Sequence record: NC_049943.1
Length of the DNA: 57,248 bases
Source: Enterobacteria phage 2851
Reading direction: 5' to 3' (one strand)
In this document: positions 30,001 to 33,000 of the stretch, in pieces
Layout of the letters: every line of letters starts with the position of its first letter
Position numbering within the stretch: position 1 is the first letter of the stretch
Program-made: the position numbers

Positions 30001-33000
30001 TAAAGAAATAGTTATATGAACAGCCATCGCAGAGCATACTGTGTATCATTCTTTTTTATAGTCAACTGACGGGCATATTTTATGTCTGCTGCCAGCTCCC
30101 GGCGGCAAGATTCAATGACCCACGCAGAAAAATTTTCTGAACCTTTCTGGTCAAGAGCGATGTTAATTTGTTCAATCATCTGGTTTGGAAATCGGATGTT
30201 GCGGGTTGTTGTTCTGCGGGGCCGGTTTTTCGATGACATTTTCTTTCCTCTGGTGACAAGCTATATGGCGAGGATTTTACATGGCTGTGCTTCGTACGTT
30301 ACCGGGCAGAATCAAAACTCTGAACACCCGGCGGGTGAATATTCTGAAGGGTGAACAGCGTCGTGTCAGTGGCAGTGCACGTGTTTCCCTCAAGCGTCAT
30401 ATCTGGCTCAGGGATGCCGGGCAGTGCTGTCTCTGTGGTCGTGTGGTTGACCTCTGTGACAGTGAACTCGATCACCGAATTGCACTTCAGTTCGGTGGTG
30501 GTAATGAGGAGACGAATCTCTGGACGCTCTGTACCGAATGCCATCGACAAAAGTCTGCTCGTGAAGCGGCGGGTGGTATGCCGGACCCGACGCTGCCGGA
30601 GGTGTCCGGAGGTCATGGCAGGGCAGACGATATCATCGGACTGTGACCCGCCCCGGGGGGGGGGGGATCATCCGGCGAAAAAAACGATCGCTCCGGACAC
30701 CGCCCCCCGTCTCACGCAGAGAAAAAATTCCCGTTTCAGGGCAGTTAACATGTTAACTGGCTGCCCGGGCATTTTTGCGGTTTTTATCTTTATTATTCAG
30801 TTTGTTGTGCGGAAAAAATGTTAACAGGCTTTTTCAGCAAATGTTAACCAGGCAGCAGTTAACATTTGCGGCATGAGACGCCGGGAAAAATGGGCTGAAC
30901 CATACCCGGCTGAGTGCGTTCTGGACCCGGGAGGAGGCTGTGCTGACAACGCAAAAACGAAAATTTGCGCTGGCGCTCATGTCCGGGAAAAACAAAACAG
31001 CGTCAGCCCTTGCCGCCGGTTATTCGGCGAAGACAGCCAGGGTTAAAGGCTCGCAGCTGGCAAAAGATCCGGAGGTGCTTGCGTTTATAGCCCGTAAACA
31101 GTGCGAGACGGTGGAGGTGGATGAGGTTCCTGTTTATCGGCAGAAAAAATCAGAGCCGGAGGATAAACCCCGTCGCCGTGAGGCGGCTGCAATACCACAG
31201 CCGGACGAAACAAATCCGGAGATGCCACCGCCCGTGGTGATATCTCCTGGTATTGAGTATATGGAGGACGGTCTTCCCGATCCGGTGAAAGCGATGGGGC
31301 GTCTTCTGGTGGAGAACATTAATACCGACCCCAGGCTGGCGCTGGATGCGGCTTATAAGCTGGCGCAGTTCACGCACCACAAAAAAGGGGATGCCGGTAA
31401 AAAATCGGCAAAAGGTGACGCGGCGAAAAAAGCGGCTAACCGTTTTGCGGTGCCACCACCACCCCGCCTGGTGGTGAATAATGATAATGAGGGCAACGGA
31501 TGATACCTGTGTGGAGCACGGCCTGCCCGGACTGGGCAGAGCGCCTGAAAAAGGGGCTGTCGATTATTCCGGCTCCGATTTATCCGGAGCAGGCCGCACA
31601 TGCCCTGGCGATTTTTAAACAACTGCGGATTGTGGATGCACCGGGCAGCCCGACGTTCGGGGAGTCCTGCGCACAGTGGGTGTTTGACCTGGTGGCGGCC
31701 CTGTTTGGCTCCTACGATGCGCAGACCGGTGTACGCCATATCAAGGAAGTTTTTATCCTTATCCCCAAGAAAAACAGCAAGTCCACGCTGGCTGCCGGGA
31801 TCATGATGACGGCGCTGTTACTGAACTGGCGGCAGGCGGCGGGCTACACCATTCTGGCCCCGACCGTGGAGGTGGCGGCTAACGCCTTCAACCCTGCCAG
31901 GGATATGGTACGACGGGACGATGATCTGGATGACCTCTGTCAGGTGCAGACACATATCCGGACCATCACCCACAGGGTGACGGACACCACCCTGAAGGTG
32001 GTGGCTGCCGATCCGAATACGGTATCCGGTATCAAGTCCGTGGGGACGCTGATTGATGAACTGTGGTTATTTGGCAAGCAGTACAAAGCGGAGGACATGT
32101 TACGTGAAGCCATAGGCGGCCTTGCCTCCCGCCCGGAAGGGTTTGTGGTGTATACGACCACCCAGTCGAATGAGCCGCCAGCCGGGGTGTTCAGACAGAA
32201 ACTGCAGTACGCCCGGGATGTCCGTGACGGCAAAATTCATGATCCGCACTTTCTGCCGGTGATTTTTGAGCATCCTCCTGAAATGGTGGAAAGCGGGGCT
32301 CACCTGCTGATGGAAAACCTCGCCATGGTTAACCCGAATCTCGGTTATTCGGTGGATGAGGCTTTTCTGTACCGGGAGTACCGTAAAGCCCGGGAGGCTG
32401 GTGAGGAAGCATTTCGTGGCTTCATGTCAAAACATGCCAATGTGGAAATTGGTCTTGCCCTGCGTTCTGACCGCTGGGCGGGTGCGGATTTCTGGGAGCA
32501 GCAGGGCAGGCGCGTCAGCCTGGACGATATCCTGCAGCGCGCTGATGTGGTGACGGTGGGGATTGACGGCGGGGGCCTGGATGATCTGCTGGGAATGTAC
32601 GTGATTGGCCGTGACAGGGAAACCCGCGAATGGCTGGGCTGGGGCCATGCCTGGGCGCATGAAACCGCGGTGGTCCGACGGAAGAGCGAGGCGTCCCGGT
32701 TTCAGGATCTTGTTGCCTGTGGAGATATGACCATTGTCCGGCGTGTCGGGGATGACACGGCGGAAGTGGCGGAATATGTGCGTCGCATTCATGAGGCTGA
32801 GTTACTGGACCATATCGGTATTGACCCGTCAGGGGTGGGGCAGATTCTGGATTCACTGGCGGAAGCCGGGATCCCCGACGGAATTGTGGTGGGGATAAGC
32901 CAGGGCTGGAAACTGGGCGGGGCCATTAAAACCACCGAGCGCAAACTGGCTGAAGGGGTGCTGGTGCATGGTGACCAGCCCCTGATGGCCTGGTGTGTCG

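Follow-up and report, generated by a model that had tools for sequence, protein, structure and literature searches.

Among the described cohesive-end (cos) packaging systems, those of the phages Lys8385Vzw and fEg-Aba01 stand closest to the locus considered in this study. For Lys8385Vzw, cos packaging with 3' cohesive ends was established by PhageTerm on virion reads, and the cos sequence was given as CGCCCCCCCT, 10 nt in length (PMC7946995). For fEg-Aba01, the cohesive end was confirmed by PhageTerm and by annealing of restriction fragments upon heating and cooling (PMC7354433). In HK97, the binding site of the terminase small subunit (TerS) is an A-tract located +15 to +29 from the cut (PMC11331095), and the cut in the termination complex is made at the interface of the terminase large subunit (TerL) and the portal (PMC10359639). 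The present study concerns the DNA between the HNH endonuclease gene and terS in Enterobacteria phage 2851 (NC_049943.1), of which the whole stretch of 57,248 bases was analyzed and is called the window below. As judged from sequence comparison, the site in the window is an HK97-type, HNH-associated 3'-cos. Our reading is that 30655-30865 is the cos of a BP-4795-like Shiga toxin (Stx)-converting lambdoid prophage with an HK97-cos-like build, including the cut, the recognition array and the G-run role proposed below, and we give this reading a probability of about 80%.

The position of the cut is indicated by the ends of related phages. The record of Lys8385Vzw (MT225100), which was sequenced from virions, ends with ...GGACAC CGCCCCCCCT and starts with CTCACGCAGAG (CTCACGCAGAGAAAAAATTCCCG), and its start base is homologous to 30711 of the window. 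The record of fEg-Aba01 (MT344103), a phage whose TerS is 31% identical to that of the window, ends with ...GGACAC CGCCCCCCAT, of which the 10-mer is annotated as the 3' cohesive end. In addition, the linear record of the Xanthomonas phage OP1 begins at the homologous CTCGTTCGCATAAAAATTACCCG, and the end of SfI mapped by direct end sequencing reads TCCGGAC TGCCCGCCCC. By homology to these ends, the top strand would be nicked between 30710 and 30711 and the bottom strand between 30700 and 30701, and the left end of the genome would lie at 30711 (CTCACGCAG...). The motif concerned, GGACAC CGCCCCCCGT at 30695-30710, is a second C-rich motif which the original prediction, made from the sequence of this DNA, had overlooked. 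We compared 67 matched cos sites, namely 64 IMG/VR loci, Lys8385Vzw, FSL SP-016 and the window itself, and the exact 10-mer CGCCCCCCGT is the commonest form among them (39/67). One point weighs against this assignment: position 9 of the overhang is G in the window and C or A in the two mapped relatives. Fixed 3' cohesive ends made by a cos mechanism are found in close and distant relatives, and a headful (pac) mechanism is disfavoured, both Lys8385Vzw and fEg-Aba01 being classified as cos by PhageTerm. The starts of other records are uninformative for the ends, as vB_EcoS_phi330 apparently begins at terL and prophage records are in prophage order; the record of the Burkholderia phage vB_E354 starts at an offset of 18 nt from the homologous cut.

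Both sides of the cut carry conserved sequence. On the right, the linear records of OP1, fEg-Aba01 and Lys8385Vzw all begin at the homologous first base of the left-end box, and the A6TTCCCG box within it, at +12 to +23, is common to phages with unrelated TerS (HK97, SfV and OP1); it may be part of the TerS site or may belong to TerL/HNH. On the left, the spacer between the G run and the cut is 33-35 nt long in the relatives. Most relatives (alignment A2) also have an extra GTAAAC, GTTAAC or GTCAAC half-site at about -30 from the cut, and half-sites thus flank the cleavage core (cosN) in them; in the window, the corresponding place at 30676-30684 reads GAAAAAAAC.

The G run itself, predicted as a 12-G homopolymer between the HNH stop and the TerS start, is indeed there, with CCCGCCCC at 30647-30654 followed by G12, and it is the only G run of at least 8 in the window. 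The expectation that its length would vary was borne out, with 7 to 13 Gs across relatives. Over the 67 cos sites, 22 loci have 7 Gs, 25 have 8, 14 have 9 and three have 10, followed by lengths of 11, 12 or 13, and none has fewer than 7. Of the Enterobacterales prophages with a TerS homologue, 18 loci allowed the cut to be placed and also included the DNA upstream of it; every one of these has 6-9 Gs, and the 3' edge of the run stands at -44 to -46 relative to the cut. In alignment A2 the 5' flank and most of the spacer diverge, and what stays invariant is the G6 core, GATC, GGACAC(C), CTCA and AGAAAA-AT. The element is also found farther away: HK97, with a TerS unrelated to that of the window, has G9, then 32 nt, then CGCCGCCAAA, and in the same zone fEg-Aba01 has G6, Gordonia phage Trumpet G7, SfI GGGGAGGGGCGGG, OP1 GGGTGGGGG and Burkholderia phage E354 G5. 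Satellites similar to phage-inducible chromosomal islands (PICIs), which otherwise have little in common with the phage, have retained all three of G run, spacer length and cosN. Since the G run is kept in these satellites and in HK97 despite another TerS, it appears to travel with cosN and TerL/HNH, not with TerS. Two phages speak against such generality, namely Paenibacillus phage Willow with C7 in place of the G run and Streptomyces phage Rowa with GGGG only.

As for the role of the G run, its position alone makes a cosQ-like function in termination our best guess. In phage lambda, cosQ is, after Cue and Feiss, GGGTCCT at 48473-48479, 23 bp before the nick; portal mutations reportedly suppress cosQ mutations. 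If the cut is made at the TerL-portal interface, as in HK97, the portal channel, or the space just past it, would be occupied by the DNA at -45 to -56. The length above the minimum looks neutral, consistent with slippage, and part of the length variation may be homopolymer sequencing error. In the literature searched, no G-rich or cosQ element was described in HK97-type cos sites; cosQ occurred only in reference lists, and "G-rich" was used only for herpesvirus pac1. A pairing of the G run with the C run of the overhang as hairpin or cruciform (in SfI GGGGCGGG with CCCGCCCC, in the window G12 with C6) was also considered. It was dropped, as the G run has no C run to match it in HK97 (CGCCGCCAAA), in OP1 and in the Phytobacter prophage L087 (CGCCGCCTCC).

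Two side observations concern the surroundings of the G run. At about 20-60 nt 5' of the run, five loci (L078, L085, L087, L090 and L093) carry an AT-rich stretch such as GAATGATAACAATTATCAC. A similar sequence in lambda, GATGATAATCATTATCAC (lambda 48450-48470), immediately precedes cosQ. The window is without such a stretch. In the PPompW prophages (locus L075, 1146-2604; LC567822.1, PPompW_132418), the IS110-family insertion sequence ISEc20 lies within the cos G run, at the place of window 30655-30666, with G7 on its left and G5ATCATCC on its right, and the region from the tRNA genes to cos (stx, lysis, HNH) is missing. ISEc20 may target G runs, and the insertion should have inactivated the cos of PPompW.

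Downstream of the cut, the five clustered GTTAAC sites that had been predicted are present at 30744, 30752, 30820, 30843 and 30858, all inside 120 bp (30744-30863), and every one of them extends to ATGTTAAC on one strand or the other. They make up 5 of the 16 GTTAAC in the window; a Poisson estimate for at least five puts the probability at 3e-10 to 3e-11 for any one 120-bp stretch and at about 1e-5 to 1e-6 once all window positions are allowed for. The 18-bp perfect palindrome noticed earlier, CAGTTAACATGTTAACTG at 30742-30759, could likewise be found, being the sole perfect palindrome of at least 14 bp in the window, and a second inverted repeat, CAAATGTTAAC-N9-GTTAACATTTG, extends over 30838-30868. 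In the E. coli relatives (group A), all five sites stand at fixed offsets in nearly all complete loci, and between +20 and +700 of the cut the density of GTTAAC is raised 12-fold (2.55 versus 0.21 per kb).

In every lineage examined that has a homologous Terminase_2-type TerS, six in all, GTTA-core repeats start at +33 to +36, with a sequence of its own in each lineage. The window has ATGTTAAC; the SP-016-like prophages have GTAAAC/GTTAAC; Proteus (L092) has AGTTAAC together with a 12-nt periodic array inside terS; Pantoea (L094) has GTTAACCC twice together with GTAAACCC and GGTAACC; the PICI-like satellites have AAAGTTAC, two copies upstream and about six inside terS; and fEg-Aba01, whose ends are mapped, has three copies of AAGTTAAA before terS. 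The repeats have multiplied recurrently and in lineage-specific form, their offset from the cut being fixed. This speaks for a TerS recognition array, and such a cosB-like array is most likely what the GTTA-core repeats are, as suggested by the comparison of these loci; in the window, the three further copies and the palindrome would constitute the putative array. The arrays within the coding sequence, as in terS of Proteus mirabilis L092 (about 2690-2830) and of the satellites L013 and L046, are 12-nt periodic GTTAA(C/T) or GTTAC arrays that translate to KVN.. or KVT.. peptide repeats.

Downstream of the cut, about 20 relatives have ...GGAGGGTGTAAAC ATG TTA ACA GCG, where ATG is the TerS start (Met-Leu-Thr), and the ATG at 30750 in the palindrome of the window is the position of the TerS start codon in most relatives, whose +34 to +47 reads GTAAACATGTTAAC or GTTAACGTGTTAAC, an imperfect or perfect palindrome. 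The lineage of the window kept and perfected the palindrome, and then gained about 190 bp including the three further copies before a new GTG start. This segment, which also holds the T-tract spacer, is absent from most relatives, and its gain left a 24-codon open reading frame (ORF) at 30750-30824. The ORF, MLTGCPGIFAVFIFIIQFVVRKKC, starts at the TerS ATG of the relatives, encodes a hydrophobic peptide, keeps a weak Shine-Dalgarno sequence and is probably a relic. The T-tract spacer may be intrinsically bent, to judge from the spacing of its tracts. Among other signals, no terminator was found by a terminator search at the cos region, Rfam gave there only a sub-threshold chance match (sX13, 18 bits against a gathering score of 50), and no convincing match to the consensus of integration host factor (IHF) was seen by eye in the spacers.

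Other explanations have to be weighed for each element. It is extremely unlikely that the G12/CCCGCCCC block is itself the cohesive end or cleavage site, a possibility helped by the likeness between GGACTG..CCCGCCCC..ATC and GGACTGCCCGCCCCATC, the cos sequence of SfV/SfI: the mapped overhang of SfI is TGCCCGCCCC, and 30645-30654 of the window reads GACCCGCCCC, with GGACTG on one side and, past the G run, ATC on the other. However, relatives, even close ones, with both the G run and the downstream site have CCCGACC, CCAGACCC, CCAACCCC or ATGACA in place of CCCGCCCC, which is lineage-specific; the mapped ends of Lys8385Vzw and fEg-Aba01 are at the downstream GGACAC CGCC... motif; and the cos of SfI has TCCGGAC before the overhang and the G-rich GGGGAGGGGCGGG ending about 30 nt before it, which the downstream site fits better. 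The mapped-end homology puts the overhang at CGCCCCCCGT, starting 35 bp past the last G, so that the cut would fall inside the originally predicted interval and not at the feature named for it: the interval holds as the cos of an HNH-associated cos phage, and the G12/CCCGCCCC block fails as its cohesive end. With the cut placed downstream, the G run could still be a neutral, slippage-prone homopolymer without any role in packaging, as it varies from 7 to 13 Gs among near-identical relatives, lies in non-coding DNA immediately past a stop codon, and tolerates ISEc20 inside the tract in a degraded prophage. We consider this improbable, in view of a length that never falls below 6-7 Gs, a distance from 3' edge to cut that is fixed while the surroundings diverge, and a recurrence in HK97, fEg-Aba01, Gordonia phage Trumpet, SfI, OP1 and the satellites, when the chance of at least 5 Gs in a 25-nt window is about 1-5% per lineage by our own estimate.

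For the repeats, the more serious doubt is that the extra ATGTTAAC copies are non-functional duplication relics of the ancestral TerS start, with TerS reading only the cut-proximal A-tract/CCCG box in the manner of HK97. Several facts weigh in that direction and against a recognition array. In most relatives the motif also provides the TerS start context (Met-Leu-Thr), with the start at its ATG in about 20 of them, so that part of its conservation is coding or translational; the cluster does sit between the cut and terS, where sites for the small subunit had been expected, but it is not purely a binding motif. Three of the five copies in the window lie within the lineage-specific segment of about 190 bp and could be duplication relics, the copy at 30818 has ATGTTAACAG in common with the TerS start, a dead ORF of 24 codons runs from 30750, and the mapped TerS site of HK97 is the A-tract at +15 to +29 with no distal repeat array (PMC11331095). 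On the other hand, the copies are found on either strand and make up two inverted repeats, the offsets of all five are kept in nearly all complete group A loci, the TerS of the window is unrelated to HK97 gp1, and GTTA-core repeats have expanded independently in Proteus, Pantoea, Acinetobacter and the satellites with no start-codon overlap there, unlike in the window and the SP-016-like prophages; on balance, we regard the relic explanation as doubtful. It is very unlikely, furthermore, that the cluster has nothing to do with packaging and serves a transcription regulator or a host factor as operator or promoter. Palindromic sites are typical of dimeric regulators, and the only promoter-like match, a minus-strand sigma-70-like one made of the motifs themselves, is seen at 30847-30818, but this match is 9/12 only and points away from any gene, and the motif offset is tied to the cut, not to a promoter, across lineages with different neighbour genes including satellites.

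Under the cos reading that we prefer, packaging may be pictured as follows. TerL and the adjacent HNH protein would nick 10 nt apart around CGCCCCCCGT, leaving 3' overhangs as in the mapped homologues, and the chromosome would start at 30711, be packaged rightwards with terS first, and end with ...GGACAC CGCCCCCCGT. The GTTAAC half-sites at +34, +42, +110, +133 and +148, probably together with the A6/CCCG box at +10 to +23, would be the recognition array for the N-terminal DNA-binding domains of a TerS oligomer; this role would match that of lambda cosB, with the T-tract spacer supplying the bend. The G run would be a distinct upstream element, in which at least 6-7 Gs are needed and whose 3' edge lies about 35 bp before the overhang. 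It would pair functionally with the TerL/HNH/portal part of the machine, not with TerS, and would most likely act when the filling motor reaches the downstream cos, in termination and cutting like lambda cosQ. Extra Gs are apparently neutral, which would explain slippage to 7-13 without loss of the element.

We also put forward, tentatively and with less than even confidence, a more general proposal. HK97-type HNH-associated cos sites may in general possess a functional element that has not been described before, namely six or more Gs in a row whose 3' edge stands about 32-36 bp ahead of the 3' overhang. It would act like cosQ in that portal, TerL and HNH sense the G run as the motor reaches the downstream cos and so license the terminal cut; a separately swappable GTTA-core module would set TerS specificity, and satellites would keep the G run and cosN of the helper with a TerS and repeats of their own. 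The taxa concerned are Enterobacterales prophages, HK97, the Acinetobacter phage and the satellites, and probably Xanthomonas, Burkholderia and Gordonia phages.

The satellites themselves (locus L046, 1-8042; also L013, L023, L035, L047 and L053) are PICI-like elements that carry an integrase, DUF4222, a D5-like primase/helicase, the G run with cosN, TerS and an ORF of the capsid family. They have the G run, spacer length and cosN of the phage, a diverged TerS, and AAAGTTAC instead of GTTAAC. One of them, L023, is in the same host genome as the phage-type locus L019, and these elements are possibly satellites of this phage family.

The features of the site and its neighbour genes are collected in Table 1.

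Table 1. Features of the cos region of Enterobacteria phage 2851 and adjacent genes (positions in NC_049943.1)
Feature	Position	Strand	Description
HNH endonuclease gene, 121 amino acids (aa)	30281..30646	+	Pfam HNH PF01844, E=7e-7; directly 5' of cos
G12 run	30655..30666	+	Conserved tract; 3' end 34 bp before cohesive end; cosQ-like position
Spacer from G run to cut, ATCATCCGGCG-A7-CGATCG-CTCC-GGACAC	30667..30700	+	Length kept; GATC and GGACAC(C) kept; remainder variable
Inferred cohesive-end sequence (cosN core) CGCCCCCCGT	30701..30710	+	10-nt 3' overhang, by homology to mapped ends
Conserved left-end box CTCACGCAGAGAAAAAATTCCCGTTTCAGGG	30711..30741	+	A6 at 30722-30727, CCCG at 30730-30733; kept across relatives (alignment A2)
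18-bp palindrome CAGTTAACATGTTAACTG	30742..30759		Two inverted GTTAAC half-sites, +34 and +42
T-tract-rich spacer	30760..30817	+	T5 at 30772 and 30781; T3 at 30789 and 30801
Three more ATGTTAAC copies	30818-25, 30841-48, 30858-65	+, +, -	Last two form CAAATGTTAAC-N9-GTTAACATTTG
Terminase small subunit (TerS) gene, 187 aa	30940..31503	+	Pfam Terminase_2 PF03592, E=4.5e-8, residues 2-57
Terminase large subunit (TerL) gene, 553 aa	31500..33161	+	Pfam TerL_ATPase and TerL_nuclease (PF03354/PF20441)

The window is in prophage order, with integrase, Q, three tRNAs, Stx A, lysis genes, KilA-N, HNH, cos and head/tail genes. Its HNH-cos-TerS segment is 97-99% identical to that of BP-4795 and of dozens of Stx1a, Stx2a and Stx2c phages; the cos region was found in 1,244 of 5,426 complete E. 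coli genomes, with at most seven copies per genome and 2,947 copies in E. coli altogether, and a 100% match is in E. coli strain 10671 (NZ_CP018250). The HNH ORF, which ends with TGA at 30644-30646 and matches in position HK97 gp74, SfV orf53 and SfI_0066, encodes the presumed accessory nuclease in cos cleavage. TerS starts with GTG at 30940, just downstream of the Shine-Dalgarno sequence GGAGGAGG. Its N-terminal 50 residues are the conserved part (alignment A1), assigned by Pfam to a Terminase_2-type N-terminal DNA-binding domain, and our scan gave 22 full-length homologues, 33-48% identical, from prophages across numerous Enterobacterales genera, as well as the homologue in fEg-Aba01. Against solved structures, TerS had only non-significant matches, to SF6-type TerS DNA-binding domains with E of about 0.3-0.7. 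TerL is 98.7% identical to that of Lys8385Vzw, 52% to that of fEg-Aba01, about 50% to that of OP1 and about 21% to that of SfII, and is 23% identical to HK97 gp2 over 461 aa (BLASTP, E=6e-11). Pfam shows a prohead protease-capsid fusion and then the portal downstream of terL: over 31500-37953, TerL is followed by the fusion (645 aa, 33225-35162) and by a portal of 859 aa with a long C-terminal extension. Farther upstream, at 22366-23661, tRNA genes for Met, Arg and Arg lie directly 5' of an ORF with a ribosome-inactivating-protein domain (the Stx A subunit), and the antiterminator Q gene is at 21564-22052, which is the usual Stx-phage layout.

About one in four complete E. coli genomes carries this type of cos, frequently more than once, and many Stx1/Stx2-converting prophages have it. 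With the exact cut and the recognition elements known, it can be told which prophages and satellites are still able to be packaged and to disseminate toxin genes; the same knowledge is of use for orienting and annotating such genomes and for building cos vectors. What goes beyond routine annotation is the G run at a fixed distance from the cut, HK97 included, and the lineage-specific GTTA-core arrays; both elements provide testable handles on HK97-type termination and on the evolution of TerS specificity, including in satellites.

In comparison with known systems, lambda cos is tripartite, with a short upstream element, staggered nicks, and then several sites for the small subunit and a bend before the small-subunit gene, and the site of the window would follow the same logic. 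The place of lambda cosB would be taken in the window by the five GTTAAC sites and the T-tract spacer, judged by position and by the recurrence of the motif across TerS homologues. Lambda differs in its 12-nt 5' overhangs, in having no HNH, in its gpNu1/gpA-type terminase, and in R and IHF sites of other sequences, and the TerL of the window matches PF03354/PF20441, not the gpA family. The site is hence not a lambda-type cos, because overhang polarity and terminase family differ and an HNH gene is present. SfV and SfI share with the window the HNH association, TCCGGAC before a C-rich 10-nt end (TGCCCGCCCC), a G-rich block upstream and a T-tract with CCCG downstream; they differ in having another TerS, no GTTAAC repeats and another overhang, and the TerL of the related SfII is about 21% identical. 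A more remote packaging signal is herpesvirus pac1, with a T-rich element between G-rich tracts and a fixed distance to the cut (review PMC13595911). This may be regarded as a resemblance; the two machineries are akin only at viral-realm level.

HK97 agrees with the window in the order HNH, cos, terS, terL, in a homologous TerL (gp2), in a 10-nt 3' overhang beginning with CGCC, and in an A/T tract with CCCG within +10 to +30. Laid out in order, the window has G12, 34 nt, CGCCCCCCGT and A6TTCCCG, and HK97 has G9, 32 nt, CGCCGCCAAA and ...CCCGATTTTTTT. HK97 gp1 has no BLASTP similarity to the TerS of the window, which is of Terminase_2 (SPP1/SF6 G1P) type, and gp1 homology is a trait of HK97 itself rather than of the wider class; gp74 and the HNH protein of the window have only the Pfam family in common. 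HK97 is without the GTTAAC array, its mapped TerS site being a single 15-bp A-tract site, and after terL it has portal, protease and capsid in this order, whereas the window has the protease-capsid fusion and then the portal.

The nearest systems remain Lys8385Vzw and fEg-Aba01, which are like the window in TerL family, in a homologous TerS, and in GGACAC followed by the 10-nt 3' end CGCCCCCC(C/A)T, and both also have the G run 35 nt upstream, a left end of the form C(T/G)CACGCA..A-tract..TTCCC, and GTTA-core repeats between the cut and terS. The window differs from them by G at overhang position 9 and by G12 against G7 in Lys8385Vzw or G6 in fEg-Aba01. For its part, fEg-Aba01 has three direct AAGTTAAA repeats instead of inverted ATGTTAAC and is without an HNH gene 5' of cos; an ORF between its terS and terL, at the position of the HNH gene of OP1, is annotated as hypothetical only. 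The papers on these two phages give no description of the G run or the repeats, and in the literature searched neither the conserved G run nor the GTTA-core arrays were described. The core of our finding is already known, because the cut site has been published for a phage whose TerL is 98.7% identical, and the G run and the GTTA-core arrays are modest additions to this system rather than a new kind of system.

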